A DNA stretch of 64,000 nt from Gemmatimonadaceae bacterium (GTDB lineage Bacteria > Gemmatimonadota > Gemmatimonadetes > Gemmatimonadales > Gemmatimonadaceae), in assembly GCA_051859245.1 (NCBI GenBank), contig JBHYGA010000004.1, positions 160,001-224,000 on the forward strand, read 5' to 3'. The translations under genes and the position numbers were made by a program. Positions 727 through 17,560 of the stretch are shown here, piece by piece; position 1 is the first letter of the stretch; every line of letters starts with the position of its first letter. The notes under the pieces are model-generated. The model had not been told where the DNA came from, ran no database searches, and saw only the letters and a program-made list of their open reading frames with translations.

Positions 727-801
727 GTGCGGCCGGACCGTTGGCAGTGACTCCGTGATCCTACGGATTGTCTGGCACGCGGGAGTCTTTTACGCTCCCG
801 C

Positions 802-1926: not shown

Positions 1927-2057
1927 CGCAGTGAACGGATGCCCGCGCGCACCGCTTGGTGCGTCCGGGGATCCTGAGTGACACGGCAGCCCGTTAGTTT
2001 GAGAGGAGTGGCGCGCATGCGCGCCCGCCTGTCACCCGCTGCCTGGGAGCCTCTGCC

Positions 2058-3155
2058 GTGCTTGCGCTCGCAATACTTGGTCTCATTGCTCTGGCCGTGA
2101 TCTTCTCGTCGGTGAAAATCATCGGTCAGGCTGAAGTCATGGTGGTTGAGCGGCTCGGCCGCTTTGATCGTGTGGCCCGCTCGGGATTGAACATTCTCAT
2201 CCCGTTCATTGAGCGCCCACGATCCATCGAAGTGCGATTCTTCGATTCCGATCCCGGCGGTCTCAAGCGTGTGGTGCAGTCGGTCACGGCGCGCATCGAT
2301 CTGCGTGAACAAGTGCTGAACTTTCCGAGTCAGCCGGTAATCACCAAAGACAACGTCACGATCGATATTGACGCGGTACTCTACTACCGCGTGGCCGATC
2401 CGCAAAAGGCCACGTACTCAGTGGCGAATCTTCCGTACGCGCTCGAAACGCTCACGCGCACCACGCTGCGAAATATTGTTGGCGAGATGGAGCTCGATTC
2501 CACGCTCTCCAGCCGCGATGTGATCAACACGCGCATGCGTGAAGTGATTGAAGAAGCATCGATTGGTTGGGGCGTTGACGTCACACGTGTGGAACTGCAG
2601 AGCATTGAACCGCCGCGCGACATTCAGCAGAGCATGGAGCTGCAAATGCGCGCCGAGCGTGAGCGTCGTGCGGCGGTCACGAACGCCGAAGCGAGCAAGC
2701 GCGCTGCGGTGCTCGAAGCGGAAGGTTTGCGTGAGTCGCAGGTGCGCAAAGCTGAGGGTGAGCGTGAAGCGTCGATTTTGCGCGCACAAGGTTTGGCCGA
2801 AGCACGACTTGCGATGGCGGAAGCAGAAGCGGCGGCGATTACGCGCATTGCCGGTGCGCTTCCCGATGGACAAGCGTCGACGTACTTGCTCGGACTCAAG
2901 TACCTCGAAGCGCTGCCACAACTCGCGGCGGGCAAAGGCTCAACCGTGTTCCTGCCTGTGGAAGCATCTGGTGTGATGGGTGCACTTGGCGGATTGCGTG
3001 AGCTGCTGCGTGCGCGTGAGGCCGACGACACATCGCCGGGCAGTGCGCCGCTTCGCAAGCCGGCGCCGTCTCCATCGCTCGGCTTTCCGGACCCGATGCG
3101 CGGCATGCTCGGCACCGGTCGCGACGCGACGCGCGACGACGAAAACAAAGGCTGA
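2058..3155 (+). CDS. SPFH/band-7 (stomatin/paraslipin-like) membrane protein
   Basis: N-terminal TM helix. VVERLGRF, IDLREQV, VITKDNV and SMELQMRAERERRA coiled-coil. GGGAG RBS. Confidence 0.92.
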   Translation: MLALAILGLIALAVIFSSVKIIGQAEVMVVERLGRFDRVARSGLNILIPFIERPRSIEVRFFDSDPGGLKRVVQSVTARIDLREQVLNFPSQPVITKDNVTIDIDAVLYYRVADPQKATYSVANLPYALETLTRTTLRNIVGEMELDSTLSSRDVINTRMREVIEEASIGWGVDVTRVELQSIEPPRDIQQSMELQMRAERERRAAVTNAEASKRAAVLEAEGLRESQVRKAEGEREASILRAQGLAEARLAMAEAEAAAITRIAGALPDGQASTYLLGLKYLEALPQLAAGKGSTVFLPVEASGVMGALGGLRELLRAREADDTSPGSAPLRKPAPSPSLGFPDPMRGMLGTGRDATRDDENKG

Positions 3156-3373
3156 TGAGCATTACGCAGGAACGTGCAGAACGTATTGCTCGTGCGCACG
3201 CGTGCTCCGGTTGCAAGGAGTACACATGGCGCAAAGTGAGCGTCAAGCCGAGCAGCGCCGCACTGCGCGAGTCGCTGCTGGTGGTGTGGAGTGCGTCGCT
3301 TAAATGCGGGATTTGCGGGAACGAGCAAGAGCTCGGGATCGACGACGACGGGGATATTGTTTTTGAGGGGTAG
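3155..3373 (+). CDS. small putative zinc-ribbon protein (72 aa)
   Basis: CSGC and CGIC pairs. TGATG stop/start overlap with the SPFH gene. Confidence 0.7.
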   Translation: MSITQERAERIARAHACSGCKEYTWRKVSVKPSSAALRESLLVVWSASLKCGICGNEQELGIDDDGDIVFEG

Positions 3374-4346
3374 TGCGCGTCGCGGCTCTCGGCGCGGTGC
3401 AACTGTCCTGACTTTCGTGAGCATAGCGCTCTTGGCGTGCGGTGGCACACCCGACACATCCGGCCCACCGCCAACGGCCACACGTTCCGCGCGCATCGTG
3501 ATCTCGGCGCCGGATACGATTGCGGCGTCAACACGCACACCGATTTCCGCGCGTCTCGTTGACAGCACGGGCGCGACCATCGCCGGTGGCAGCTTTGTGT
3601 TCACCGTTGAGGAAGGCGCGCAGTACGCATCGGTGTCGATCAACAGCGAACTCGCGGGAGCACCGTTTGTCACGGTTCAGCCGCGTGCTGTACGCGTCGC
3701 CGTGCAGGTGAACGACGTGCCGAACAATGTGGTGTTGCAAGAACGAACCGTGAGCAAGGCCGTGGCCGTGATAAGCCGCATTGCGTCCATGCGCCCGGTC
3801 GTGAGCGCGACGTCGTTGCTCACTGGCGACACGGCGCGCCTCACGTTATCGACCGTGTTCCGTGCCGGTGCAGAATCCGGTCCGCCGCGCGACATGCTGC
3901 TCTGGTATGTGGACAGCGAGTTTGCAGCGCTCGACAACACCGGCGTTGTTGTGGCCCGCGTGATGCCGTCGCTCTTGCCCCGCACCGCGCGCATCTGGGC
4001 GCGTACCGAAGGTGTACTCAGCGACACTGCGTTGCTCACTCTCGTGCCACCACCGGCGGTGGAGCGTTTTCAGGTGCGCACCGTTCCAGACGGTTTGTCG
4101 AACACGCTTAAGGTCGGTACGTCACGCCTGTACGACGTCGTGTTCATTGGTGCAGGCGGAGCGGTGCTACCATCGCCGCGGTACTCGCGTGCTGATCTGC
4201 TCTCGCAGGATCAGGTCACGGGTATCACGGCCGGTAACACCGTGTTCTGCGAGATTCCGGGCGTGAGTGAGGTCGAGGTGTTCTACCCAAAGCGCGACGG
4301 CGAGAATCCCGTGCGGTTCGCCTTCAACGTGACGTGTGTCCCGTAA
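3363..4346 (+). CDS. putative lipoprotein with Ig-like (Big) domains; start uncertain
   Basis: Lipobox LLAC after a basic N-region, beta-rich repeats. TTG start chosen within ORF 3291..4346. Confidence 0.55.
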   Translation: MRGSARRGSRRGATVLTFVSIALLACGGTPDTSGPPPTATRSARIVISAPDTIAASTRTPISARLVDSTGATIAGGSFVFTVEEGAQYASVSINSELAGAPFVTVQPRAVRVAVQVNDVPNNVVLQERTVSKAVAVISRIASMRPVVSATSLLTGDTARLTLSTVFRAGAESGPPRDMLLWYVDSEFAALDNTGVVVARVMPSLLPRTARIWARTEGVLSDTALLTLVPPPAVERFQVRTVPDGLSNTLKVGTSRLYDVVFIGAGGAVLPSPRYSRADLLSQDQVTGITAGNTVFCEIPGVSEVEVFYPKRDGENPVRFAFNVTCVP

Positions 4347-4381
4347 GCCGCTGACTTACGCGCGCTGAAACACGCCTCGCA

Positions 4382-4948
4382 TCAAAACGCGATCCCAATT
4401 CCGAAGTATGGATTCCACGACGCCAGTGTTCCGTAGCGCGGTCTGATTTCGTAGCGCAGTGAGAGCCCAGGTGCATCTGGTTCGCCGAAGTGCGCGCGCA
4501 CTCCATAAATGCCGCTCACCCATCCGCCGCCATTCACTCTGCCAAACTCTGACACGCTGCCACCGTATTCATGCCAGAACCAGGAGCCGGCGATGGATGC
4601 GGACGCGAACAGCTGTGCGTTACGAATGTGCACCGGTGGACTTTCCAAACCCAGTCGTGCGGTGCCCATGTCTGTGCGCCGTGTTCCTGTTCCGCCCGGC
4701 ACGGACCGGTCTTGCAGGTTGAAGGTGCCCCCAATACCGGAAATCACGCGAACTCCCGCTACTTGGAAGAAGTCCGCCTGAATCAGCGCCGTTGTCACCA
4801 GGTGCGCGCGCGAGATGTTTGAAAAGTGCCCAACACCGGCATCTACAACGAGGCCGGCATGCTGCGCCTCAAGCGGCGGTGTGATGCCAACGAGAGCAGC
4901 GAGTAACACACACGGCGCAGCGCGTTGTATCCGATAGCGCGCAGTCAC
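4382..4948 (-). CDS. hypothetical outer-membrane beta-barrel protein
   Basis: Signal peptide ending LEA|Q, amphipathic strands, C-terminal YFGIGIAF barrel signature. Confidence 0.55.
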   Translation of the reverse strand: MTARYRIQRAAPCVLLAALVGITPPLEAQHAGLVVDAGVGHFSNISRAHLVTTALIQADFFQVAGVRVISGIGGTFNLQDRSVPGGTGTRRTDMGTARLGLESPPVHIRNAQLFASASIAGSWFWHEYGGSVSEFGRVNGGGWVSGIYGVRAHFGEPDAPGLSLRYEIRPRYGTLASWNPYFGIGIAF

Positions 4949-5011
4949 TGTTTGGTGATATGCATGCTACCGATACAACGCGCCCACGCGATCGTTCCGC
5001 CGTAGACGCAG

Positions 5012-5536
5012 TTACGCCGCGACCGCTTCCGGCGCCGCCTGCACTTCGAGCTCCAGCTTCACGTCATCCGACACCAGCACACCACCCGCTTCGAGCGCGG
5101 CGTTCCACGTGAGGCCCCACTCCTTGCGCGAGATCTTCGTGGACAGCGTGGCGCTCACCTTGGTGTTGCCCCACGGATCCTTGGCCGGCCCGCCCACTTC
5201 GCCGGTGAGTGCGACGGGCTTCGTGATGCCACGAATCGTCAGTTCGCCATGCGCCTTGAGCGATTCGCCGTTGCGCTCGGTGCTCACGAGGCGGAACGTC
5301 GCGGTCGGGAATGTCGTCACGTCAAAGAAGTCCGCCGAACGCAGATGATCATCGCGCTGCGTGGAGCCGGTGTTCAGCGTGGCGACATCCACGGCCACAT
5401 CGGCGCCGCTGATCACGCCGTCGTTTTCGTCGATCGTGCCGCTGAGCGTTCCGAATGATCCGCGCACGGTGGAGATGCCCATGTGCTTGACGGAAAACGT
5501 GATCTGACTGTGTGCTGGATCGATTGCCCACTTCAT
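5012..5536 (-). CDS. yceI: YceI family lipid/polyisoprenoid-binding protein
   Basis: WAIDPAHSQITFSVKHMG, RDDHLRSADFFD, GELTIRGITKPV, DPWG. GAGGA RBS. Confidence 0.93.
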   Translation of the reverse strand: MKWAIDPAHSQITFSVKHMGISTVRGSFGTLSGTIDENDGVISGADVAVDVATLNTGSTQRDDHLRSADFFDVTTFPTATFRLVSTERNGESLKAHGELTIRGITKPVALTGEVGGPAKDPWGNTKVSATLSTKISRKEWGLTWNAALEAGGVLVSDDVKLELEVQAAPEAVAA

Positions 5537-5598
5537 GGCGGAGTTCCTCGTGATGGCGTAAGTAGATGGCGACCAATAGAAAAGTCGCTCACACGTTG

Positions 5599-5640
5599 TA
5601 TTCTCAGTACTAAGATATATTCGCCAGCGGTGGTGCGCAA
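5599..5640 (-). promoter_or_regulatory. sigma70-type promoter of yceI (TTGCGC-17-TATCTT) overlapped by an imperfect palindrome, probable MarR operator
   Basis: Minus strand -35 at 5640-5635 and -10 at 5617-5612. Imperfect palindrome TCTCAGTACTAAGA at 5602-5615. Confidence 0.5.
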
Positions 5641-5695
5641 GTGGGCAATAGGTACTTCGACCCGCGTGACGCGCGTCGGCCTGATTGAGCGACCG

Positions 5696-6253
5696 CTACA
5701 CGCCCCGCGTCGATGAGAACTCAGCCGCCGCGGCTCCGTGACCGAGCCGCTTGAGCAGTGACGCTGCCATCGCCTGCTCTTCGGGCGTGAGAGCGCCCAC
5801 GGCGCGCTCAATCATCGCGGCATGCTCCGGAAAAATGCGAGCGATCAACGCTTCGCCGTCTGCGGTGAGCGCGGCGTAGCGCGCGCGACGATCGGAAGGG
5901 CACTCCTGCCGCTCCACGAGCCCCTTGGCCACCAAACGGTCCACCAGGAAGGTGATACCACCGCTGGAGACCAGAATGCGGCGCTGCACCTCGCCCAGCA
6001 GCATGGCGCCGCGATGGTAGAGGGCCTCGAGAATCGCGAACTCGGTGAGCGTAAGCCCGTGGCGGGCCACATCGTCGGCCACGTGTGCACTGACCGCCAC
6101 CTGGGCACGAGACAGGACCACCCACAGCTTGAGCGCTGCCGCCGTGTCCTCGCTCACGTCGAGCGGGTGCGCCGTTCCGGCCACGATGCCGTGGGACTCG
6201 GTCGGCTCGTGAAGGACTGCTGTGCTGGTATCGGATTTTTCGTGAACAGGCAT
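5696..6253 (-). CDS. MarR family transcriptional regulator (MhqR-like)
   Basis: LKLWVVLSRA, GLTLTEFAILEALYHRG, SSGGITFLVDRL, DRR wing, IFPEH. ATG at 6253 preferred. Confidence 0.9.
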   Translation of the reverse strand: MPVHEKSDTSTAVLHEPTESHGIVAGTAHPLDVSEDTAAALKLWVVLSRAQVAVSAHVADDVARHGLTLTEFAILEALYHRGAMLLGEVQRRILVSSGGITFLVDRLVAKGLVERQECPSDRRARYAALTADGEALIARIFPEHAAMIERAVGALTPEEQAMAASLLKRLGHGAAAAEFSSTRGV

Positions 6254-6470
6254 AGGTACTTCAAGCCTCAGCATTGTCACAGCGTTGCGCAAGGGTACCC
6301 GTACGGACTCGCGGTTCGGACTCAAGGGACCGAATAACAACCGGCAATCACTGGTTGAACGGTTATTCTCTTATGGCTCAGTAGAGAGATGGACCTGGAA
6401 TCATTATTATGCGGGTGACGCGCTGGTGCGACGGTCGCACCACGCCTCGCACACCCGAAGAGGGGGGGTA

Positions 6471-6680
6471 ATGCGGAAGCCGAGGCCGAACACCTACAAC
6501 CCTGCACAGGCGCTGCACCTGATTGCGAGTGATCGCAGTGCCCTGCCACTGAGCTGTCCGTCTTGTTCCGGTGAGATCACGCGGGAACCCGCGCTGTATC
6601 CACCGCCAACCAACTCACACGTCACGCTCAAATGCGCGGTGTGTGGTCGCTTCGCTCGCTACATCGCCGGCAACGGCTGA
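6471..6680 (+). CDS. small putative zinc-ribbon protein (69 aa)
   Basis: G-rich RBS before ATG 6471. CPSC and CAVC pairs. Followed by a hairpin. Confidence 0.6.
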   Translation: MRKPRPNTYNPAQALHLIASDRSALPLSCPSCSGEITREPALYPPPTNSHVTLKCAVCGRFARYIAGNG

Positions 6681-6710
6681 GCGTCTCCACCTTATCACGC
6701 AGTGAATGCA

Positions 6711-6746
6711 ACAACGCCCCGGCCACTTTGGTAGCCGGGGCGTTGT
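6711..6746. terminator. hairpin between convergent genes
   Basis: ACAACGCCCCGGC / GCCGGGGCGTTGT 13-bp inverted repeat. Confidence 0.65.
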
Positions 6747-6818
6747 CGTTGTGGCAACGGTACACCGTGCACGCGAAACGCGCACGCGCGAAACTCGCAC
6801 GCGCGACACCTGCACGCA

Positions 6819-7103
6819 CTACCAGTTGATCGTGCCCTGCTTGCTCGTGTCCACGTTTTCTGCGTCGCCGGACTTGAACAAAAATCCATCACGATTGCGA
6901 CTGAGAAATGTGCGCGCTTGCGCATCCATCAGGTTCAGGCCGTAGTGATTAATCAGCATGGTCTGCTGTTTCAACCAATCGGCCCAGCACGTTTGACAGA
7001 CTTCAGCGACCAGCCGTTCAGCGGTTGCACCAACAACACCAATCGGTGCTTTCTCAAAACCAGCGCGCGTTTGTCCGCAGCGCTTGCACGTGATATCGGG
7101 CAT
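6819..7103 (-). CDS. yggX: Fe(II)-trafficking / oxidative damage protection protein, YggX-like
   Basis: WxxWLxxQTMLINxYGLNLMDxxARxFL signature. GGAG RBS. Confidence 0.85.
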   Translation of the reverse strand: MPDITCKRCGQTRAGFEKAPIGVVGATAERLVAEVCQTCWADWLKQQTMLINHYGLNLMDAQARTFLSRNRDGFLFKSGDAENVDTSKQGTINW

Positions 7104-7175
7104 GTGTGATCACTCCGTGGCAACAATCGGAAACAGAACATCCGTTGCCACAATCTAGCATGCGCGCGCGCGTGG

Positions 7176-7709
7176 TTAGTGCGGCGGCGCCGGTTCCAGC
7201 CGCAGCAGCGTTGTTGGCGGTGGCGGCGTGGTAACGTTTGGTGCAATCCAGATCACGTCCACCGCGTACACACCGGCAGCCTGCGTTGTGGACAACGTCA
7301 CGCGCTCCGCGCTCCAGGACACCAGTTGGCCGCTGGCGTCAACAATCTGCCAGTCCGGGCCGGGGGCGCCGGCTTCGACCACCAGACGAGCCGGCACATT
7401 GCTGCGCACATCCACCGTGGCGATCCAGGCGCGTTGCGCGAGCTGCGCCGTGGCCGCGTCACCCAGCCGCTCACGCATCAGCGACACACCGGGCCGTGAA
7501 TGTGATGAAATTGCCGTCCGTGTGACGATCGGGACGCTACCCACGAGGGTGTGACGCACCGTATGTAGCGGCGATCCTGCAGCTTGTGCACCGCTCGCCC
7601 GTGGCGCCAACGCCACGATGGCCAGCGCCAGCCACACGCCGGCCAGGCCAACGTGCCTGTGCGGCGCGGCGGGAGGTGCGAATCGGCGGGAGGAACAGAC
7701 AGAGCTCAT
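7176..7709 (-). CDS. secreted pilin-like protein 4 (divergent)
   Basis: Signal peptide ending ASGA|Q. HTLVGSVP and VDVRSN resemble HTLNAVVP and FDVKAN of the 13784 protein. Start uncertain (7709 or 7727). Confidence 0.5.
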   Translation of the reverse strand: MSSVCSSRRFAPPAAPHRHVGLAGVWLALAIVALAPRASGAQAAGSPLHTVRHTLVGSVPIVTRTAISSHSRPGVSLMRERLGDAATAQLAQRAWIATVDVRSNVPARLVVEAGAPGPDWQIVDASGQLVSWSAERVTLSTTQAAGVYAVDVIWIAPNVTTPPPPTTLLRLEPAPPH

Positions 7710-7852
7710 GCCGAAGCGTATCGGCACAGTGCGTGCCGAAGTTGAGCCTCGGCGGGTGGAAATCGCCCCCGAATTCCGGCGTTGTAACGGTAGTGCCTGA
7801 CATCATCGCCGAGGACGGCCGCGAACCGTTACCGAGCCGCACAGGCTGCAGG

Positions 7853-8488
7853 CTAAGGCGCGGTCACGTTGATCGTGAGCGGCAGGCTGTACGTGCCCGG
7901 TGGATTCGTGGCGAAGATCCACCGTACACGAAAGCACAGCTGGCGCAACACACCATTCATGCCGGCATTCGATTGCAGGAGCACACGCGGTGCGTTGCGC
8001 TGAATGGCGATCGGACTGGCGCTGAGCGGGGTCATCTGGACACCGGTACACATGTTCTCGATCGTGGACACGCCGAGGTCCACATCGGAAGCGGACTTGA
8101 ATGCTGGTCCGCTGAAGATCGGTTCGTTGACCAGCGTCACGCTGATTCCAAAGTTGGACTGCGCGCGCAACGTGGGCCCGACAATCACAATGCCGGTATC
8201 GGCGGCGATACTGAATCCGACAGACGCGGCGGCGACGCCACCCGTGAGATCGGTGGTGGTGCGATTGAGTTGCACGAGCGATTGCACGGGCAATTGCACC
8301 GATGCGGTCAGACTCACCGTGCAGGTGCGCGTCTGCCGTCGTCCCGGCTGCTGCACGTTGCAACTCGACTGCGCTGACGCGGCCGTGCTGTGCAACAGGG
8401 GCGCGAACATGATCACACAGATGAATCGTGAGTACACCGTGAATCTTGCTCGGACGGTGTGCAACACACGCTCGCTCGTTGCCCTCAT
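7853..8488 (-). CDS. secreted pilin-like protein 3 (paralogue of 13784..14332)
   Basis: ATGA overlap with upstream gene. AASA|Q signal, 4 Cys in the mature part, ends QLCFRVRWIFATNPPGTYSLPLTINVTAP. Confidence 0.7.
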   Translation of the reverse strand: MRATSERVLHTVRARFTVYSRFICVIMFAPLLHSTAASAQSSCNVQQPGRRQTRTCTVSLTASVQLPVQSLVQLNRTTTDLTGGVAAASVGFSIAADTGIVIVGPTLRAQSNFGISVTLVNEPIFSGPAFKSASDVDLGVSTIENMCTGVQMTPLSASPIAIQRNAPRVLLQSNAGMNGVLRQLCFRVRWIFATNPPGTYSLPLTINVTAP

Positions 8489-8904
8489 GGTTGTCGCACC
8501 AGCACAAACGCGCCCGACGTGAAGGACGCGTCGAGTCCGCTGTCGTGAAACCACGTTCCGGCAATACTGTCTCCCGAAACGCGCCCGATGTGGCGGACGA
8601 CGGCGCCATCGAGCGTTGCTTCAAACTCCATGGCGTCACTGCTACGCCGACCGACAATCAATCCGGCGACGCGCTGCACCTGACCCACCGGATCTGTCCG
8701 CCGAATGTCAAGCATACCTTCGAACCGATCGCCGCCAACGCGGGTGAGCTGCAACGCGCCTTCGAGACGCAACGCGGCGGGTAGACGCTGCTCGCCTGCA
8801 TACCGCCACTGTTCCGTGCTGCCGTTCGGCTCCAGCGAGGCGTTCACACACGCCGTCGCCGATACCAGCACCATGATCAGGAGCGCACGAGGCACGCGAA
8901 TCAT
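8485..8904 (-). CDS. small lipoprotein within the pilus-like locus
   Basis: Lipobox ATAC, all-beta composition, ATGA overlaps at both ends. Confidence 0.65.
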   Translation of the reverse strand: MIRVPRALLIMVLVSATACVNASLEPNGSTEQWRYAGEQRLPAALRLEGALQLTRVGGDRFEGMLDIRRTDPVGQVQRVAGLIVGRRSSDAMEFEATLDGAVVRHIGRVSGDSIAGTWFHDSGLDASFTSGAFVLVRQP

Positions 8905-11900
8905 TTCCGACCCGCTGCGGCCGCGGGACGTTCCACCGGCGTTGCACGGAATACGCGCACACGCCGGGGACCGAGCAGCACGCGCACGGACTGTCGCGCG
9001 CGCTGTCCGTCAAGCCGTACCGTGGGCGACGCGCCCTGTACACTCAGCGGCTCGCGCGCCGCGGAACCGTCCACGTCAATACGATAGACACCGGGTGGCA
9101 ACGCGTCGAAGAGGGCGCGACCGTCGGGTAGTAACGTGGCGAGGTGTCGACGTCCAGCTTCATCAATCGCACTTACCGTGACACCAGCGAGTGAGAGTGT
9201 GGTGCCATCAACCACGGAATCGCGCACAATCTCAAGCTGCACTTCGACTGCACCCACGGGAACAACAGGAATATCGAGGGACCCATCGCGCAGGGCACCC
9301 GCCGTCGCGCGGCTGACCTGCGGCGCAAGCATCAACCCGAATGGCAGCGAGCGTTCATCAAGCTCGGGTATTCCGGCACCCACACGAGTGAGTCGGTAGC
9401 TGCCATCGCGATCGGTTACAACCACTTCTCCACCAATGCGCACCAGGACGCTGGCCAACCCGCGTTCGCCGCGATCACGTACACCGTTGCCATTGAGATC
9501 TTCAAACACAACACCCATGCCACGTCCACCACGCAAAAACGCGGGCGCGCCAAAACTGCGTTCAACACGCAATGCGGTGGTCCAGCCGCGCGCACCGTTT
9601 AATGCGAACGCCGGATTGCGCTCGAAATCAACTCGCACGTACGTCTGAAACGGCAACAGCGATGCCAATCCCACGCGCTGTGTGAGCACTTCCGATCCGG
9701 TGCCCAGACTCACAGTGCGACCAAGGGCCGCGTTGACATACAGTCGCTTGTCGGTGAATGGCAGCGCGATCTGCTCAGCGCGCAGCGCCATGTCGTGTTG
9801 TCCGTCGCCAAGCACCGCCGAGCCGGATCGACGCTGCACCGCGGAGTAGAAGTCAATCGTACCGAATGCAGTGGGCCACAGCAGCTGCGTCGACCAGAAC
9901 AGTTGATTCTCACGCTCACGCGGCAACCGAGAATCGAAGTACGCGAAATCTCGCTGCAACTGCGTGTACGTCGCACTGGCCGATGCCGTGAACACACCAA
10001 GACGCGTTGAGCCAAACAGTCCGGCAATCTGTGACAGCGTGGACAGACGAACGGCCTCATCACCACTGCGTGAACTGCCTATGCGCGCTTCCAGGCCAAG
10101 ACTGCTCGAACGCCCAATGCGAAACTGCGGCATGACGCCCACGCCGCTGGTCTGTTGCACCACACCCTGCTCACCTTCGTCGCTCGCATACCAGCCGAGG
10201 TAACCCAGGCGCAACGCGCCCAAGCCCTGTCCGCCGGTGAACGTGATGTCCGTTTGTGCGCGGGCAAAGGCGCGGCTTCCACCGGGTGCGTGCGTTGCAC
10301 GCAGACGCCAGTCACTGCGCGGTGAACGATTGCCAAGTTCAGCGGCGGCACCCACACCACTGCCATCGTTCCAGCGACGATACGCCAGTTCGCCGCGTGC
10401 GTCGACGCCCATACTAGCAACACGTTCGGCGCCTACGGCAAACGCATCGAGTTCAGCACGCGTAATGAGCGGATCACGCAAGTGACTGGCCGACGCGGTG
10501 TACGCGATGCCACCTCGCACCGCACGAGCGCGCAAACCGGCCAGCACACCGCCGTATTGCACAATCAGTGATCGGTTCAGACGCGATGCGTTGTTGTCCG
10601 ATTCCGCGACACCAAGCGTGAATGGCCGCGCCGCGAGTGCGGAAAGCTGCCACGCGGTGTCTCCCACCGTCGCGGACACACCGCGGCCGCTGCGCGTGAG
10701 ACCGGCCATATCACCGAAATCTGCGGCCGCGTTGCCAGCGTCAACACGCCAGTTCGGATGGATGAACGCGATTGTGGGAAACGCTTGCCCACCACCAATA
10801 CGCGAGAGTCCAGGCGCACCACCCACGGCGCGCTGCGTCCACGCGGCACTCACATTCACGCGCGAGCTGATCGGTCCGGTGAGTGTGAAGCCCCAGCTGT
10901 CGAGATAGTCCTGTCCCGGCTGCTGCACCGCGTTGTAACTCAAACCGAGCACCGGACCGAACGCGCCACCACGGCTGGCCGACAGCACTTCAACCGGCAG
11001 CGAGAGTGTGCGTGGTGCGGCGTCGTTCGATGTTGCATCATCTTTGAAACGTGCGGCGTACACCTGCACGCTTGATGCACCAGACTCGTGATCACGCGGC
11101 ACAGTGATTTCGATGTCTCGCGTGACAGTCGCGCCCGGCGCCAAGACAATGCGCGCCGATTGCTGCACACGACCGCGCCATGCCTGTGGCAGGGTGAGCG
11201 AGAGACTGACGGTATCTTCCACGTTGCCGCCATTGGCTACCACGACACGCACCGCCGTCTTTTTTCCCGGCATGGCGTGCATGGTTGGTGCAGCGGGCGT
11301 GACGCTGATCGCGCGCACCGGGGCAACCATCACATCCACGGGTACCACCACCGTTTCGCGGCGTACCGCTTCCGGGCCACCGGGCATATCGAAGCGCACC
11401 TCAGCGAGCCGCAGTGTGCCCGCCAGCGCTTTACTCGGCACCGACACACTCAACGTCACACGCGCGTCGCTGCCAACCACAATGCCGGACGTTGGCCCAC
11501 CAATCACGGCGCCAGGCGATTTGTCGACGGTGTACGTGACCGAATCGCGCGCACCAAGCGTGGCCGGTGGTGCGACGCGCACCAGATGAATGCTGCGCGG
11601 CACGGCATTGAGCAGAGTACCAGCTGCCATACGAACGCTGCCGGTGGCAGCGCTGGCTGTTCGTGGAGTCCCCGAGACCATCACGTCGTTTGGATCGGTA
11701 CTTGGCGTAACCGTCAGTTCGATCGGTACAATCACGCGATCACCGGTACCGTCGGCAGCCCAGAATCGCACGTCCGCGAGTCGGTGCACACCAACTGCGG
11801 CCGCCGCCGGTGCACGCACAAGCAGTGGCACCATGGCATCGGTACTCATGAACGTTCCGTCGCCCGCACCATTCACCGCACCGGCGAGCGTACGGTTTAC

Positions 11901-12101
11901 ATGAAAACTCACCGAATCACTGCCACGAAGCAGCGCCGGCACCGGAACACGCAGTGTAGTACTGGTTCCGGATTCCAGTGTGATGCGAATGGTTGGTGCC
12001 ACCCGAATATTCGGAGGCGCCGCTTCAAGCGCGTGCGCGAATGCGGCCGAGAACGCAAGCGAGCTGCCAAACGCGAACGCAAGTACGGCGCGCGCGATCA
12101 C
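8901..12101 (-). CDS. large usher-like outer-membrane protein: Ig-like N-domains, beta-barrel, SdrD-B/Cna-like C-domains
   Basis: GTG start overlaps the upstream stop (GTGA). Signal peptide, NGGNVEDT...LAPGA Ig-like domain, long amphipathic-strand region, VFEDLNGNGVRDRGERGL...TDRDGSY motif. Confidence 0.65.
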   Translation of the reverse strand: MIARAVLAFAFGSSLAFSAAFAHALEAAPPNIRVAPTIRITLESGTSTTLRVPVPALLRGSDSVSFHVNRTLAGAVNGAGDGTFMSTDAMVPLLVRAPAAAAVGVHRLADVRFWAADGTGDRVIVPIELTVTPSTDPNDVMVSGTPRTASAATGSVRMAAGTLLNAVPRSIHLVRVAPPATLGARDSVTYTVDKSPGAVIGGPTSGIVVGSDARVTLSVSVPSKALAGTLRLAEVRFDMPGGPEAVRRETVVVPVDVMVAPVRAISVTPAAPTMHAMPGKKTAVRVVVANGGNVEDTVSLSLTLPQAWRGRVQQSARIVLAPGATVTRDIEITVPRDHESGASSVQVYAARFKDDATSNDAAPRTLSLPVEVLSASRGGAFGPVLGLSYNAVQQPGQDYLDSWGFTLTGPISSRVNVSAAWTQRAVGGAPGLSRIGGGQAFPTIAFIHPNWRVDAGNAAADFGDMAGLTRSGRGVSATVGDTAWQLSALAARPFTLGVAESDNNASRLNRSLIVQYGGVLAGLRARAVRGGIAYTASASHLRDPLITRAELDAFAVGAERVASMGVDARGELAYRRWNDGSGVGAAAELGNRSPRSDWRLRATHAPGGSRAFARAQTDITFTGGQGLGALRLGYLGWYASDEGEQGVVQQTSGVGVMPQFRIGRSSSLGLEARIGSSRSGDEAVRLSTLSQIAGLFGSTRLGVFTASASATYTQLQRDFAYFDSRLPRERENQLFWSTQLLWPTAFGTIDFYSAVQRRSGSAVLGDGQHDMALRAEQIALPFTDKRLYVNAALGRTVSLGTGSEVLTQRVGLASLLPFQTYVRVDFERNPAFALNGARGWTTALRVERSFGAPAFLRGGRGMGVVFEDLNGNGVRDRGERGLASVLVRIGGEVVVTDRDGSYRLTRVGAGIPELDERSLPFGLMLAPQVSRATAGALRDGSLDIPVVPVGAVEVQLEIVRDSVVDGTTLSLAGVTVSAIDEAGRRHLATLLPDGRALFDALPPGVYRIDVDGSAAREPLSVQGASPTVRLDGQRARQSVRVLLGPRRVRVFRATPVERPAAAAGRK

Positions 12102-12613
12102 GGTCGGTACACCGACAACGTGAGCGCAATATTGCTGGCCACAAGTGACGGCGCCGGATCTGCCCAGGCGATCCGGACCCGTAACCAGATGGTACCCGAC
12201 CACGGATCGTTCAATCCGTTCGGTATCACTGTGCGTGACTCAACACTGTTGTCGAGCTGCGTCAGCGCACGCCACGGCCCCACTGGCCCGCTGCGCCACT
12301 CTACGTCGGCGCACTGTTTCGGTCCGGTGACGGCGACGCAGCGAATCAGCACGGTGGTAATACGCGTGCTGTTCTGATTGAGCACGCTCACCGTGAATGG
12401 GACGGCAACAGAATCGGTGACAGGCCCCGTCGCACTTGAAGGCCACGCGGTGTAGTTCGACATGCGCGGCGTGGGGATGGTCACAGCGCCAGTCGTGAGC
12501 GAAAAGCCCGTACTCTGACCGTTTGCCGAACGCCACGGCGAAACGCTCCCGATCAGTAGCGTCGCCGTGAACATGCAGCGTGTAATGTGCGAAGCGATGC
12601 GCGAAGTCGGCAC
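12098..12613 (-). CDS. secreted pilin-like protein 2
   Basis: GTG directly abuts the chaperone stop. SANG|Q signal. KQCADVEW parallels KSAGDVRW. Ends in a beta-strand followed by Pro. Confidence 0.6.
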   Translation of the reverse strand: MPTSRIASHITRCMFTATLLIGSVSPWRSANGQSTGFSLTTGAVTIPTPRMSNYTAWPSSATGPVTDSVAVPFTVSVLNQNSTRITTVLIRCVAVTGPKQCADVEWRSGPVGPWRALTQLDNSVESRTVIPNGLNDPWSGTIWLRVRIAWADPAPSLVASNIALTLSVYRP

Positions 12614-13495
12614 CTACCGAACCTCGTACTCCAGCTGGCCCGCCACGAGTTCACTGCCACCAAAGTCGAGGAGCGCGAGCATCACGTAGCGTCCGGCGGG
12701 TAGCTCGGGCAACACCTGTTGCAGCATGCGCCGTGAGCCGGGCAGCACGGGAAACGTGGCGACATCAGCACGATGCGCGATTGAGTTGTCGGCGCGACGC
12801 ACTTCGATTGAGCCTTTCACAAGCAACTGCACGTCGCCAACATTTCGAAAGCCAACCAGCAGAGTAGGCGGTGCAACGTGGCGCGACTTTGTTGCGGACG
12901 GCGCGCTGGATTCCGGTGGCGGCGATGCTGGCGCATCACTGAGCGTCATCGCGTCGATCAATCCGTCGCGCAGCGCACTCGTCGATTCGCCGTACACCTT
13001 GATGCCCGTGCGTACGTTGTAGCTCAGTTGACGCCCCGCCTCCACGGCGGACGCACGATTTTCGAGGAACACAATCGACCAGCAGTTCGCCGGCACCTTC
13101 TCACCCGCGGCGAGTGAGACGCGCACGTTGGCACTCTGGCCTGGTCCAAGCACCATCGATTTCGGGAACACCTCAAGTCCTGCCGCACAGCTGTTCTTCG
13201 TGGTGTGCGCGGGAAAGAAGCGATTCGTACCCGCTTCATCGCGGTCCCAGTCTTCAATCGTGACCACGGCCTGCACGGTCTTGGCCGTCTCGTTGCGTAC
13301 CGCCACCATGCGAACTGTAGGTGTGGCCGATGGCGTGATAAACAGCTCGAGCTCGTCTACGGTGAGCTGTGCATCCGCTGTGGCGGGCAGCAACAGACAG
13401 GCCGCAGCCAGCAAGACGCGGCGCCAATCACTTGTGCGCTGCGGGCGATCGGGGCGTGGTTCCTGATTGGTGCGGACAGGCTGGCGGGCGGTCAT
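12614..13495 (-). CDS. periplasmic pilus chaperone-like protein (PapD/DUF916-like two-Ig-domain)
   Basis: ADA|Q signal. VRN, VFPKSMVLGPGQSANVRV, WSIVFLE, GIKVY, FRNVGDV, VLPGSRR and LPAGRY motifs. Confidence 0.75.
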   Translation of the reverse strand: MTARQPVRTNQEPRPDRPQRTSDWRRVLLAAACLLLPATADAQLTVDELELFITPSATPTVRMVAVRNETAKTVQAVVTIEDWDRDEAGTNRFFPAHTTKNSCAAGLEVFPKSMVLGPGQSANVRVSLAAGEKVPANCWSIVFLENRASAVEAGRQLSYNVRTGIKVYGESTSALRDGLIDAMTLSDAPASPPPESSAPSATKSRHVAPPTLLVGFRNVGDVQLLVKGSIEVRRADNSIAHRADVATFPVLPGSRRMLQQVLPELPAGRYVMLALLDFGGSELVAGQLEYEVR

Positions 13496-13699
13496 GCGAG
13501 GCGGGATGAATGCGGTGGGGCGCGAATCGCTAAAGTTCCGCGCGCTGGTGCCGATACTTGAAACCGAGGTGTCGCGGGGATGCAGCAACTAGACGCGTCT
13601 GTGCCAGCGCGGTAACGCGGCGCGTCGGTCTTCCGCAGTTTGTGAGAGAGCGAGCCATGGCCGTAACGCGGGACGATTCGGCGGCGGCGCCGTAATCGC

Positions 13700-13734
13700 A
13701 AAAGGGGAGCCCGCAGCGTGCGCAGACTCCCCTT
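13700..13734 (-). terminator. intrinsic terminator downstream of the major pilin-like gene
   Basis: Minus strand AAGGGGAGTCTGC-gcacgct-GCGGGCTCCCCTTTT. Confidence 0.7.
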
Positions 13735-13783
13735 CAGTTCCGTCATGTGTGCATCGCGCGGACGTCAGCGCCCGCGCCGTGCC

Positions 13784-14332
13784 TTACGGAGCGCTCACGC
13801 TCACGTTCAACGGCAGCGAATAGTTGCCCGGCGTATCCGAGGCGTAGTTCCACACGATGTCAAAGCAGAGCTGCTGACGTGGCGCCGTGCCGGCCGTGCC
13901 CGTGTACACGCCAACCGCCGTCGTGCTCACCGCCGCGTACGCTCCAGCAGAACCGCATCCTGCGGCACCCGTGACTCGCGCCCAGCGAACGTCACCAGCC
14001 GACTTGGCCGCATTGGCGCCGCCGTTCGCGGTGAACGTCGCATTGACCGACGCGAGCGTGATGGAATAGCCACGATTGGCTTTGACGTCAAACAACGGGC
14101 CGGCAACCTGCTGGCCGTTGTCGAACTGTGCCGCGGTGATGTTGCCGAGCGCCGTCGTGGCGTTCTCAAGCGTGAGCGTCACGAGTGTCGGCACGACCGC
14201 GTTGAGCGTGTGACCACACGCCGCGCCACCTGCGGAGCAGCTCGGGCCGGTGAGCGCCTGGGCACTGGCGTTCGAAGACAAGACAAGACCGAGCGTAAAC
14301 ACGCCGGCAACAACTGAAAGGCGACGGAACAT
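13784..14332 (-). CDS. putative major pilin-like subunit
   Basis: GGAG RBS 9 nt before ATG 14332. NASA|Q signal, Ala/Gly/Thr-rich beta protein, 4 Cys, ends QLCFDIVWNYASDTPGNYSLPLNVSVSAP. First gene of the locus. Confidence 0.75.
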   Translation of the reverse strand: MFRRLSVVAGVFTLGLVLSSNASAQALTGPSCSAGGAACGHTLNAVVPTLVTLTLENATTALGNITAAQFDNGQQVAGPLFDVKANRGYSITLASVNATFTANGGANAAKSAGDVRWARVTGAAGCGSAGAYAAVSTTAVGVYTGTAGTAPRQQLCFDIVWNYASDTPGNYSLPLNVSVSAP

Positions 14333-14604
14333 GCGATGCATCTCCAGTGAGGTTTCACGGAATCAGGGGCGGGATCGAAAAATCTTTGGCGAAACGCTCA
14401 AGTTCTGGAGCGATGCTGCCGAGACTCTTCGAGGATTGCTATCCGTGTGTGCCCTGAAGACGCGAGCGCCGCGCTCGTCGTAACGGGCGCGGCGCAAATG
14501 TGCCAGACAGTGAACAGGTGTGCCATCGCTGTAATGCTTTTCACACGATCCGTGATGCCATTCGCCGTTTCTGTAACGGTGCGTGGCACCATATCGCGTT
14601 GTCG

Positions 14605-16095
14605 CTACAGCGATTTGACCTCGGACACCAGCTTGGTGAGCGACGTCTTGGCGTCGCCAAAGAGCATGTTCGTTTTTTCGTCGAAGAACAACTCGTTTTC
14701 AATGCCGGCAAATCCGGGATTCATGCCGCGCTTGAGCACGATGATATTGCGCGCCTCATTCACATTCAGAATGGGCATGCCATAAATCGGCGACGTTTTG
14801 TCGGTCTTCGCGGCTGGATTCACCACGTCGTTGGCACCAATGACCACCACCACATCTGTTTCGTGGAAGCTGTCGTTGATTTCATCCATGTCGTACATCT
14901 TGTCATACGGCACGTTTGCTTCGGCGAGCAACACGTTCATGTGGCCCGGCATGCGACCGGCCACCGGATGAATGGCGTACTTCACTTCGCCGCCATTCTT
15001 CTCAATGAGCTCAGCGAGTTCGCGCACCTGATGCTGTGCCTGCGCCACGGCCATACCATACCCAGGCACGAACACCACGCGCCCGGCATACGCGAGCTGC
15101 ACCGCGGCATCTTCCGCGCTGATGCTCTTGGCCACCAGCCCTTCTGACGTTTTTCCGCTCGACGTCACCACGCTGCCGAACGCACCAAACAGCACGTTGC
15201 CAAACGAGCGGTTCATGGCCTTTGACATGATGATCGACAGAATGAATCCGGACGCACCGTCGAGGGCGCCGGCAATGATCAGCACGTCATTGTCGATCGC
15301 AAAACCAGTCGCCGATGCCGCAAGGCCGGCGTACGAGTTGAGCAGCGATACGACCACCGGCATGTCGGCACCACCGATTGGCAGCACCATGAGCACACCG
15401 ATCGCAAATCCGGCCGCGAGCATCACGTAGAACACACGCACGTCGAACGGATTGAAAATCATCCACACAAAACAGCCAATCGCCGCGGCGAAGAGCAGCA
15501 GGTTGAAGAAGTTCTGACCCTTGAACGTGATCGGACGGCCGGTGATGAACTCCTGCAGTTTACCGAACGCCATGAAGCTGCCGGTCACAGTGAGTGAACC
15601 GAACAACACTTCAAATCCAATGGCAGCCATCTTGAAGCGCTCGATACCCTCGGCGCCTTCAATCTGAATGGAGTGGTAGTACTCACCCACACCCACGAGC
15701 GTGGCCGCCAATGCACCAAACATGTGCGAGAAGGCAATACGCTGCGGCATCGCCGTCATTGGCACGAACTTGCCCAGCGGATAGCCCAGTACGGTGCCGA
15801 GGATCAAACCACCAATGATCCACGAATACGTGAGAATGCCGCTGTTCAGCAGCGTACCCACAATCGCGAACACCATGCCGAGCGCGGCGAGCTGCATGCC
15901 GCGTCGCGCCTGATCGGGCTTGGTGAGCGAACGCAGGCCCAGAATGAACAACACCGACGACGCGAGATACGTGAGCTGCACCATCAACTCGCGACCACCG
16001 AGTGCATCCATGGACGCACCGGTGGGACTCGACATCAGCAAATACGCCGCTGCCGCCGCGGTGGGCAGGCCGGCCAGGAACAGAAGCAGACTCAC
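14605..16095 (-). CDS. pntB: NAD(P) transhydrogenase beta subunit
   Basis: MTAMPQ, GGADMPVVVSLLNSY, VPGYGMAVAQAQ, IHPVAGRMPGHMNVLLAEA, GANDVVNP. Start placed at the GTG overlapping the pntA2 stop; it may be later. Confidence 0.96.
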   Translation of the reverse strand: MSLLLFLAGLPTAAAAAYLLMSSPTGASMDALGGRELMVQLTYLASSVLFILGLRSLTKPDQARRGMQLAALGMVFAIVGTLLNSGILTYSWIIGGLILGTVLGYPLGKFVPMTAMPQRIAFSHMFGALAATLVGVGEYYHSIQIEGAEGIERFKMAAIGFEVLFGSLTVTGSFMAFGKLQEFITGRPITFKGQNFFNLLLFAAAIGCFVWMIFNPFDVRVFYVMLAAGFAIGVLMVLPIGGADMPVVVSLLNSYAGLAASATGFAIDNDVLIIAGALDGASGFILSIIMSKAMNRSFGNVLFGAFGSVVTSSGKTSEGLVAKSISAEDAAVQLAYAGRVVFVPGYGMAVAQAQHQVRELAELIEKNGGEVKYAIHPVAGRMPGHMNVLLAEANVPYDKMYDMDEINDSFHETDVVVVIGANDVVNPAAKTDKTSPIYGMPILNVNEARNIIVLKRGMNPGFAGIENELFFDEKTNMLFGDAKTSLTKLVSEVKSL

Positions 16096-16418
16096 GCGGC
16101 CCCGCCTGTGGTATCCTGCGGTGCCGTTGGCTTGGAGTCCGCACGCTTGAACATGCTCAGCATGCGGTCCGTAATGATGAATCCGCCCACCACGTTCGTC
16201 ATGGCGCACACCACCGCGATGAAACCAAGAACCGTCGCGACGGTGCCGTACTGTCCGCCCGCAAGCACGATGCTGCCCACGAGTGAAATGCCGCTGATCG
16301 CGTTGGTCGCCGCCATGAGCGGCGTGTGCAACAGCGGGGGCACTTTGGTGATCACCAGAAAGCCGACAAAACCGGCCAGGATGAACACGTAGAGTTGAAT
16401 GATTTGTGTAGCAGTCAT
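16092..16418 (-). CDS. pntA2: NAD(P) transhydrogenase alpha-2 (membrane) subunit
   Basis: VPPLLHTPLMAATNAISG and NVVGGFIITDRMLSMF. Confidence 0.95.
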   Translation of the reverse strand: MTATQIIQLYVFILAGFVGFLVITKVPPLLHTPLMAATNAISGISLVGSIVLAGGQYGTVATVLGFIAVVCAMTNVVGGFIITDRMLSMFKRADSKPTAPQDTTGGAA

Positions 16419-16453: not shown

Positions 16454-17560
16454 CTAGCGGCGCACTACACCCGCGTGCGCGACAGCCATCGCACCAGTGA
16501 TTTCATCGTCAAGGTCCACGTGCAGTGCACCGTCTTTGTTCAGGTGCTGCAGCAACGTGAGCATGTTGCGGCTGTACATCTGGCTGGCGTGCAGCGGTTG
16601 CGTGGCCGGCAGGTTGCGAGCACCAATGATCGCCACGTCGCCTTCCATGACGGTTTCACCGAGCACAGTGAGTTCACAGTTGCCGCCGGTCTCTGCCGCG
16701 AGATCAACAATCACCGAACCCGGCTTCATGCTGCGCACCATTTCGGCCGTCACCAGTCGCGGTGCAGCACGACCCGGAATCTGCGCCGTGGTGATCACCA
16801 GATCCTGATCGGGAATGTGTCGGGCAATCGCGGCCAGCGTGCGCGCCTGTTCATCATCACTCTGCGCCTTGGCGTATCCACCCTTGTCTTCGGCGCCTGC
16901 GCTCACGAGATCCGTGGCCACGAACTTCGCGCCCAGCGATTGGACTTGCTCACGCGCCGCCGCGCGCACATCAAACGCACTCACCTGCGCACCGAGGCGA
17001 CGCGCCGTGGCAATCGCCTGCAAGCCCGCCACACCAGCACCTATGACAAACGCCTTGGCCGGCTGAATCGAACCGGCGGCGGTTGTGAGCGACGGCAGAA
17101 AACGCGGCAGTGCGGCGGCCGCCATCAAAACGGCCTTGTAGCCGGCCACGGTCGCCTGCGAGGAGAGCACGTCCATGCTCTGCGCCCGCGTAATGCGGGG
17201 GACGAGCTCCATGGCCAGCACCGTGATGCGACGCGTGTTCAGCGCGCCAACCAACGCCTGTGCACTGGCGGGCTGGAGCAGGCACGCCACCGCCGTGCCC
17301 TCCGGAAGCGCCGCCACTTCCGCGTCGGACGGTCGCTGCACCTTGGCCACCAACGCCGCGCCATTGACCGTCGCAGCAAAACCGCTGGCCAGCTGAGCCC
17401 CCGCCTGTTCGTACTGCTCGTCCGGGAAGTACGCCATCGCGCCGGCGCCGCGCTCCACGACCACCTCGTGCCCAGCCTTGACCAGCTTGGCCACGCTGTC
17501 CGGGACCAGGGCTACACGGCGCTCAAACTCTTCTGTCTCCCGAGGAACACCAATGCGCAT
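16454..17560 (-). CDS. pntA1: NAD(P) transhydrogenase alpha-1 (dI, NAD-binding) subunit
   Basis: ERRVAL, RITRAQSMDVLSSQ, GAGVAGLQAIATA, TTAQIPG, DLAAETGGNC. Confidence 0.96.
   Translation of the reverse strand: MRIGVPRETEEFERRVALVPDSVAKLVKAGHEVVVERGAGAMAYFPDEQYEQAGAQLASGFAATVNGAALVAKVQRPSDAEVAALPEGTAVACLLQPASAQALVGALNTRRITVLAMELVPRITRAQSMDVLSSQATVAGYKAVLMAAAALPRFLPSLTTAAGSIQPAKAFVIGAGVAGLQAIATARRLGAQVSAFDVRAAAREQVQSLGAKFVATDLVSAGAEDKGGYAKAQSDDEQARTLAAIARHIPDQDLVITTAQIPGRAAPRLVTAEMVRSMKPGSVIVDLAAETGGNCELTVLGETVMEGDVAIIGARNLPATQPLHASQMYSRNMLTLLQHLNKDGALHVDLDDEITGAMAVAHAGVVRR

Follow-up and report, generated by a model that had tools for sequence, protein, structure and literature searches.

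The 64,000-nucleotide stretch of DNA analysed here (the window), from contig JBHYGA010000004.1 of a Gemmatimonadaceae bacterium (assembly GCA_051859245.1), carries seven consecutive open reading frames (ORFs) on its minus strand between positions 7176 and 14341, all in the same orientation, which we denote G1 to G7. We found that this locus is probably a surface-fibre operon that works through a very divergent chaperone-usher pathway, and we put the probability of this reading at roughly three in four. We favour it because G2 is related to the periplasmic chaperone PapD, the predicted structure of G1 has a pilin fold, the predicted structure of the large protein G4 finds its best fold match in an usher, the genes are translationally coupled, and they are conserved together in related genomes. 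An earlier reading of the same DNA from its letters (the sequence-only reading) had proposed a non-canonical chaperone-usher-like fibre system, possibly an uncharacterised branch in a poorly studied phylum. Our results agree with it on both points, as the subunits, the barrel of G4 and the lipoprotein G5 belong to no Pfam family and the genes are strongly co-conserved in Gemmatimonadota. Judging by profile searches, what is new here is the pairing of a recognisable PapD-type chaperone with subunits, a pore and a lipoprotein that match no profile library.

Chaperone, subunits and large barrel protein

The gene for G2 lies in an ORF at 12614-13588 (coordinates are those of the window and refer to the minus strand unless stated otherwise). 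Its likely start at 13495 gives a periplasmic PapD-like chaperone of 293 amino acids (aa), which corresponds to database protein P0020. Signal cleavage is predicted before Q43, and the C-terminus, ...GQLEYEVR, is without a hydrophobic membrane helix. Among 77 homologues of G2, 19 bore the name 'P pilus assembly chaperone PapD' given by the Joint Genome Institute (JGI), and three carried a precomputed PF00345 domain. When 36 aligned relatives of G2 were scanned singly, PapD_N was matched by 14 of them, with 2.1e-7 as the best E-value. We then compared the family profile with the Protein Data Bank (PDB), where the sole chaperone-type matches were CupB2 (E = 0.023) and FaeE (E = 0.25). In the alignment with CupB2, two invariant residues of the G2 family, P111 and K166, fall on the Pro of the chaperone's ...P... 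motif and on the Lys of its R..K motif, respectively. PMC4654587 describes this Pro as the only residue that is invariant across the whole chaperone superfamily. The family alignment also contains a motif resembling the beta-strand called G1 in chaperones (not the protein G1), which is a sequence hint only, and a conserved stretch, Y-x-V-R-T-G-V-K-V-Y, that would be a candidate for the strand donated to the subunit. Through its relatives, and at the level of the family, G2 is thus placed as a distant PapD-type chaperone.

The gene for G1, the putative major fibre subunit, occupies the ORF at 13784-14341. The likely start is the ATG at 14332, which is preceded by GGAG and gives a protein of 182 aa (P0001). 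G1 has a Sec-type signal, and the alignment of its family shows four conserved Cys residues and an invariant C-terminal pattern, ...PG.Y.L......AP. We found 19 homologues of G1 in a set of 5.8 billion proteins, all of them unnamed and none with a Pfam domain. A structure of G1 predicted with AlphaFold2 from a 16-sequence alignment had a predicted local distance difference test score (pLDDT) of 85.7 and a predicted template modelling score (pTM) of 0.72. The Foldseek search of this model against the PDB was dominated by chaperone-usher pilins, including CfaB (1.5e-4), PapA, CsuA/B, FimA, FimG, PapH, PapE and CupE. The pilin matches had probabilities of 0.90-1.00, and the match to CsuA/B in the Csu pilus (7zl4_B, TMt 0.57) was among those with the best TM-scores. 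At E <= 1e-2, all matches listed were chaperone-usher pilins or complexes containing one, except for TLP-1a/b, the TasA fibre and the Hyper2 tube. The other donor-strand fibres in the list were TLP-1a/b, TasA and the archaeal bundling pilus. As modelled, G1 has an Ig-like (immunoglobulin-like) pilin fold.

Two further genes encode proteins related to G1. The gene for G3 (12098-12613), a putative minor subunit, lies between the chaperone gene and the gene for the usher-like protein, and the gene for G6 (7853-8488, 211 aa) lies 3' of the lipoprotein gene and encodes a second pilin. G1 and G6 are paralogues by direct comparison (BLASTP E = 7e-13, 31% identity). Subunit families were assembled from the 80 related loci and aligned with one another using hhalign. 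The upstream and downstream pilin families matched each other with a probability of 100 (E = 4e-46), and the pilins matched the G3 family with a probability of 98.9 (E = 1.9e-17), or 91.8 when a narrower alignment was used. By these comparisons, G1, G6 and G3 are three related subunits of one superfamily. No known pilin family was matched at E <= 1 by any of the four window proteins G1, G3, G6 and G7. In the wider families, Fimbrial PF00419, SCPU PF05229, DUF4402 and WxL were matched by 0 of 132 members at E <= 0.05, and no curated cut-off was reached. These 132 proteins, sampled from 185, comprised 45 upstream pilins, 35 downstream pilins, 45 G3 proteins and seven G7 proteins. Searches of the PDB with the pilin and G3 family profiles also found no pilin, and the rows returned for G3 were at chance level.

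Several features of the subunits fit proteins that polymerise by exchanging strands. An alternating-hydrophobic stretch was found directly after the signal peptide in G1 and G3, and in G1 and G6 such a stretch comes after a small Cys-Cys loop. Many G3 proteins have a donor-strand-like N-terminus after the signal peptide, with the sequence S/A-G-G-T-I-T-F in the alignment. The last strand of the subunits is conserved as P-G-x-Y-x-L-P-L-x-x-x-V-x-A-P. Its C-terminal Pro does not vary among the aligned G1 and G6 proteins, and it is also the final residue in 22 of the 23 G3 sequences shown. These features are consistent with what would be expected of a donor-strand subunit.

The largest gene of the operon, at 8901-12101, encodes G4, a putative usher-like outer-membrane protein of 1066 aa (P0097) whose reading frame is open to 12203. 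Its Pfam matches were only of Ig type, namely NPCBM_assoc/NEW3 at residues 278-349, SdrD_B at 864-911 and CarboxypepD_reg at 963-1012, and no other Pfam or NCBIfam domain was seen in any of the seven proteins. We modelled G4 with AlphaFold2 using 24 sequences (pLDDT 79.1) and assigned its strands with DSSP. In the model, the signal peptide is followed by three Ig-like domains (~30-132, 155-259 and 265-372), a run of about 28 consecutive strands that would form the barrel (~384-850, ~470 aa) and two C-terminal beta-sandwiches, one SdrD_B-like (862-925) and one CarboxypepD_reg-like (944-1045). The best Foldseek match of the model in the PDB was the usher FimD (9fy9_D, 1.8e-13). FimD and PapC made up 14 of the 47 matches listed, and these included isolated usher translocation domains (3ohn_A, 2.2e-8, TMt 0.41; 2vqi_A, 3.1e-8). 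The remaining matches listed were repeated Ig and cadherin proteins and chains of large assemblies such as the ciliary central apparatus and the nuclear pore, so that ushers were the only outer-membrane barrel family among the 47. The predicted domain order, with beta-sandwiches on either side of the barrel, parallels that of ushers, in which an N-terminal domain (NTD) and a barrel are followed by two C-terminal domains (CTD1 and CTD2). The sequence-only reading had stated that no part of the locus closely matches FimA, CsuA/B or PapC. This holds for the sequences, but not for the predicted folds, which Foldseek matched to these families.

Operon structure and conservation in related genomes

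The seven genes and their co-orientation, as claimed before, were recovered directly from the minus-strand ORFs of the window, and a hydrophobic N-terminal stretch was seen by eye in all seven proteins, in line with export signals. The junctions were also found as previously described. The stop of the G2 gene abuts the start of the G3 gene (12614/12613), G3 and G4 overlap in a shared GTGA (12101-12098), and a shared ATGA joins G4 to G5 (8904-8901) and G5 to G6 (8488-8485). The gap between G6 and G7 is 125 nucleotides (nt). The ratio of nonsynonymous to synonymous substitution rates (dN/dS) against the nearest related locus, L001, was 0.06-0.26 for the seven genes, with the highest value, 0.26, in G7. 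This range indicates purifying selection and hence seven real genes. Long plus-strand ORFs run antisense to G4, such as one of 429 aa at 11088-12377 (+). These are shadow frames, typical of DNA with 60-65% G+C, and were not counted as genes.

A hairpin resembling an intrinsic terminator is located 3' of G1, at 13735-13701, with a 15-bp stem and a 5-nt loop followed by a U-run. The 101-nt stretch that contains it had a folding energy of -54.2 kcal/mol, compared with -37.6 +/- 3.2 kcal/mol for 200 shuffled sequences (z = -5.3). The terminator that had been noted after G1 is therefore real as a structure. A similar hairpin and T-run were found after the upstream pilin gene in five of the nine closest loci (L001, L003, L004, L006 and L007) and in the more distant loci L013, L071 and L075, although the majority of the distant clade lacks one. 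Generic scans were uninformative, with four terminator-like sites where 7.5 would be expected by chance and one promoter-like site where the expectation was 1.2, and the G1 hairpin escaped the simple terminator scan. In the pap and fim operons, attenuation occurs after the gene of the major subunit. The hairpin after G1 is likely an attenuator that keeps the output of subunit high relative to that of the machinery.

To survey the neighbourhood of the operon, we scanned for relatives with the chaperone alignment, using one genome per species, and kept 80 of 92 relatives as loci. The scan relied on one peptide pattern characteristic of the family, and the library of representative proteins carries no taxonomy. 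The titles of 77 of the 80 loci named Gemmatimonadota or a lower taxon, while the other three gave no organism. Within this scope, the operon seems to be confined to one poorly studied phylum of soil and freshwater. No paper in the literature library that we searched links Gemmatimonadota to usher pili.

We then determined which genes accompany the chaperone by searching with the seven window proteins (tblastn) around 82 chaperone anchors, counting only those anchors at which the contig left room for the gene. The upstream pilin was present at 67 of 71 anchors, G3 at 69 of 76, G4 at all 56, and the downstream pilin at 40 of 45. G5 was present on the same strand downstream at 47 of 52 anchors. 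When G5 was also accepted on the opposite strand upstream, it was present at all 40 anchors with room on both sides. A core of six genes in the same order (pilin, chaperone, G3, G4, G5, pilin) was found at 33 of the 40 anchors with room. The survey of gene neighbourhoods proposed in the sequence-only reading thus revealed a co-conserved gene set.

G5 (8485-8904, 139 aa) is a small orphan lipoprotein whose gene is translationally coupled to those of G4 and G6. Its lipobox cysteine, C19, is kept without exception in the 38 family members compared, which also share the conserved motifs G-x-W-x-Y and G-T-W...S-G-T-F. No relative of G5 was found in Pfam, NCBIfam or the PDB, where the profile rows were at chance level, and a language-model search of the Atlas returned only clusters of Gemmatimonadota hypothetical proteins. 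A function for G5 can be inferred only from its position and co-conservation.

The last gene of the locus, G7 (7176-7727), encodes an exported protein of 183 aa and was present at only 6 of 40 anchors with room. It was found in seven loci (L001-L003 and L005-L008), all in the near clade of the window, and appears to be a clade-specific accessory gene. G7 has no Pfam match, and its PDB profile rows were at chance level only. The sequence-only reading had counted four related pilins in the locus. Three of these stand, G1 and G6 by BLASTP and G3 by profile comparison, but G7 as a fourth pilin was supported neither by hhalign (probability <= 3 against the pilin families) nor by BLASTP (E = 0.84). 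The nearest Pfam-bearing Atlas clusters of G7 were SCPU and DUF4402 (0.90 and 0.89). This lead is weak (recognition 1908, below the threshold of 2300) and was not confirmed by alignment.

A variant of the operon was observed in L014, L015, L017, L036 and L042. In these loci, a G5-like gene lies upstream of the pilin genes on the opposite strand, and no G3 homologue was detectable between the chaperone and pore genes. L017, L036 and L042 also have one or two additional upstream pilin genes. Two contigs from Gemmatimonadaceae metagenome-assembled genomes (MAGs) carry a tandem pair of complete operons, L031 at 214-4748 and 5312-10978, and L034 at 3543-8414 and 9425-15204 of their own contigs. No second copy of the operon was found in the 64-kb window.

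The flanks of the operon vary by clade. In the window, the operon is preceded by pntB (14605-16209) and by a pntA-like alanine dehydrogenase/PNT gene (16454-17560), and it is followed by genes for a YggX-type Fe(2+)-trafficking protein (6819-7103), a MarR regulator (5696-6340) and a YceI protein (5012-5536). All of these are ordinary genes on the minus strand. In L039, the operon is flanked by acs and ccmA instead. Because the flanking genes differ between clades, the operon appears to be a self-contained unit. Within 5 kb of the 80 loci, we found no extra partner genes: upstream there was only housekeeping synteny (acs, ccm) and downstream nothing was conserved, with the caveat that the clustering of six-frame ORFs was noisy, given the high G+C content.

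Proposed assembly pathway and alternative explanations

We propose that the subunits G1, G3 and G6 would be exported by Sec and held in the periplasm by the PapD-like G2, which would cap the open groove of each subunit by donor-strand complementation. At G4, the strand of the chaperone would be swapped for the N-terminal strand of the next subunit (donor-strand exchange), and the growing polymer of subunits would pass through the barrel of this usher-like protein. G1 would be the bulk subunit, because its gene is the first in the operon and has the attenuating hairpin behind it, and G3 and G6 would be minor subunits. G5 might be an extra component that helps to anchor, gate or insert G4 in the outer membrane.

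A number of results weigh against this pathway. G2 itself has no NCBIfam match and no Pfam match, with PapD_N absent even at E <= 1, and the best PDB profile match of its family, CupB2, is weak (E = 0.023). In the alignment with CupB2, a near-invariant Glu (E50 in G2) is found where the first-strand Arg, which anchors the carboxylate in classical chaperones, aligns. The TM-scores of the G1 model to pilins are modest (0.33-0.57), those of the G4 model to ushers are low (0.22-0.41), and the pTM of the G4 model is 0.46. The usher domain PF00577 was matched neither by G4 (E <= 1) nor by any of 34 relatives (E <= 0.01), and a barrel-only profile found no PDB chain at E <= 10. The barrel profile (A5), which contains 30 sequences with 23-91% identity to the barrel of the window's G4, also stayed clear of the large usher family, since it recovered only a closed set of 246 proteins from 1.84 billion representatives. 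Of these, 228 were found at <= 1e-10, and nearly all of the 246 are 850-1100 aa long with a barrel start near residue 260. The operon contains no two-domain tip adhesin. A PDB search with the full-length G4 profile returned only SdrD B domains and no usher.

With Glu at the Arg position and K166 kept, the classical Arg and Lys anchor of the chaperone seems to be half present. The Glu in place of Arg suggests that G2 may hold the C-terminus of the subunit in a different mode. In non-classical chaperones, the carboxylate anchor typically consists of an Arg in strand F of domain 1 together with Tyr and Arg residues of domain 2, according to PMC4654587. The G2 family has an invariant Arg (R233) and an invariant Tyr (Y270) in domain 2. 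As a lead, these two residues might act as a domain-2 anchor of the non-classical type.

How far the locus departs from known systems could be taken further. It is possible, in our view, but well short of probable, that Gemmatimonadota have a deep lineage of their own in which chaperones assist the assembly of fibres, outside the alpha-to-sigma classification of ushers. Such a lineage would have a translocator that shares its fold, but not a detectable ancestry, with PF00577 ushers, a dedicated lipoprotein as a required fourth core component, and a new pilin family. Under the same tentative reading, the translocator would have been recruited independently or would have diverged beyond recognition, with new periplasmic domains.

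Among the alternatives, the one that survives best keeps the same machinery and changes the product. Instead of a discrete pilus, the locus would make a thin, capsule-like or matrix polyadhesin of G1, or a surface coat of the subunits. Tip-less chaperone-usher systems make thin, capsule-like polyadhesins, and both the lack of a two-domain adhesin gene and the size of G1, G3 and G6, all of which are small single-domain proteins of 171-211 aa, would fit such a product. The presence of the conserved minor subunits G3 and G6, however, suggests a differentiated fibre, and the data presented here do not separate a thin polyadhesin from a rod. We consider a product of this kind unlikely compared with a fibre.

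It is more doubtful still that G4 is an outer-membrane barrel serving a different purpose, for instance as an adhesin on the cell surface or as a porin that bears Ig-like domains, and that G2 and the small beta-sandwich proteins are its non-polymerising partners. The missing sequence homology to ushers and the low TM-scores described above would be expected if this were so, and end domains of the NEW3, SdrD_B and CarboxypepD_reg types are typical of surface adhesins and enzymes. However, ushers were the only outer-membrane barrels among the 47 Foldseek matches listed, and G4 was found at all 56 anchors with room, at the position of an usher gene and coupled to genes for a chaperone of the PapD type and for proteins with a pilin fold. 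In addition, two relatives of G4 (P0136 and P0137) end in a LysM domain that follows the SdrD_B/CarboxypepD_reg region. This suggested that the C-terminal domains of G4 face the peptidoglycan, like those of ushers, and would place these end domains in the periplasm rather than on the cell surface.

The least probable explanation, which we regard as very improbable, would make the locus a relative, in a diderm phylum, of the Bacillota WxL/Elr pilus, whose donor-strand exchange is guided by a DUF916/DUF3324 chaperone. In its favour, the subunits share a conserved Trp and end in a hydrophobic strand, and the N-terminus of the G3 family fits the consensus [S/T]-x-[G/A]-x-[V/I]-x-F that a preprint (bioRxiv 10.64898/2026.10.17.759780) gives for the donor strands of ElrC/D, but so short a motif is generic for beta-strand donors. 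Neither the four window subunits (E <= 1) nor the 132 family members (E <= 0.05) matched WxL, DUF916 and DUF3324 were matched by 0 of the 36 chaperone relatives against 14 of 36 for PapD_N, and G2 is without the C-terminal membrane helix that the same preprint reports in 96.7% of WxL chaperones, along with a screen in which the positives (48 genera out of 4,698 genera from 81 phyla) were in Bacillota only. The likeness to WxL and DUF916 proteins that the sequence-only reading had pointed out was thus not borne out.

Comparison with known fibre systems

Chaperone-usher pili are a textbook case of donor-strand assembly, and their classification rests on the sequence homology of ushers. Almost all of them come from Proteobacteria, and there is almost no cell-surface biology for Gemmatimonadota. 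If confirmed, the operon would extend the known range of the chaperone-usher pathway and show, as a natural experiment, what ushers and chaperones truly need in order to work, with candidates including the N- and C-terminal domains, the plug and the carboxylate anchor. A lipoprotein partner would be unprecedented in the pathway. Several hundred 'hypothetical' proteins of soil and freshwater metagenomes would also gain an annotation.

The operon resembles the classical chaperone-usher systems (Pap, Fim and CFA/I) in its gene order: the major subunit and a hairpin come first, and the genes for the chaperone, the pore in the outer membrane and the minor subunits come after them. The G2 family is related to PapD_N, and in the PDB the G1 model is best matched by pilin folds and the G4 model by usher folds. 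The differences lie in the proteins themselves. By sequence, the operon has no match to PF00577 or to PF00419, and G4 has different end domains, with three N-terminal Ig-like domains (one of them NEW3-like) and the SdrD_B-like and CarboxypepD_reg-like domains at the C-terminus. The operon has G5 as an extra conserved lipoprotein and lacks a two-domain adhesin, and the G2 family has Glu where the classical anchoring Arg aligns. To our knowledge, no known chaperone-usher system has a lipoprotein component like G5.

According to PMC9452303, only the archaic (sigma) class of chaperone-usher systems has been reported from many different phyla. The CsuA/B subunit of the archaic class, which includes Csu of Acinetobacter and CupE of Pseudomonas, resembles the G1 model (TMt 0.57). 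The subunits of the locus, however, are not SCPU proteins (0 of 132 family members and 0 of four window proteins), G4 is not a PF00577 protein, and the chaperones that the G2 profile matches in the PDB are CupB2 and FaeE, not CsuC. Failing to match PF00577 and the Fimbrial and SCPU families, the operon falls outside the described classes as these are defined by sequence.

Type V pili of Bacteroidota (FimA/Mfa) differ in principle, as their pilins are made as lipoproteins and they use neither a chaperone nor an usher. We rejected a Type V pilus for this locus: by eye, the signal peptides of G1, G3 and G6 have no lipobox Cys at the predicted cleavage site, and a chaperone and a pore are present.

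With the WxL/Elr pilus, the locus would share Ig-like subunits that lie outside the classical families and are assembled under the guidance of a chaperone, as well as the donor-strand-like motif at the N-terminus of G3. It differs in having a chaperone related to PapD_N rather than to DUF916/DUF3324, with no membrane anchor, and in having an outer-membrane pore but no LPxTG protein or sortase. The phylum is also different.

The top Foldseek match of the G1 model was TLP-1a (PDB 9ikj/9ikk), with E = 1.1e-4 and TMq 0.51. TLP-1a/b form fibrils from pond water with Ig-like protomers joined by donor-strand exchange, and PMC11494351 gives their source organism and assembly genes as unknown and places the closest predicted relative in Flavobacteriales. 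TLP-1a has 11% identity to G1 and is a larger target (236 aa), and we do not claim homology. New donor-strand fibres are still emerging, as the Pam pili of the Candidate Phyla Radiation (CPR; PMC13278184) and TLP-1 (PMC11494351) illustrate. The operon described here would join these recent donor-strand fibres (WxL/Elr, CPR Pam and TLP-1), whose assembly machines are mostly unknown.

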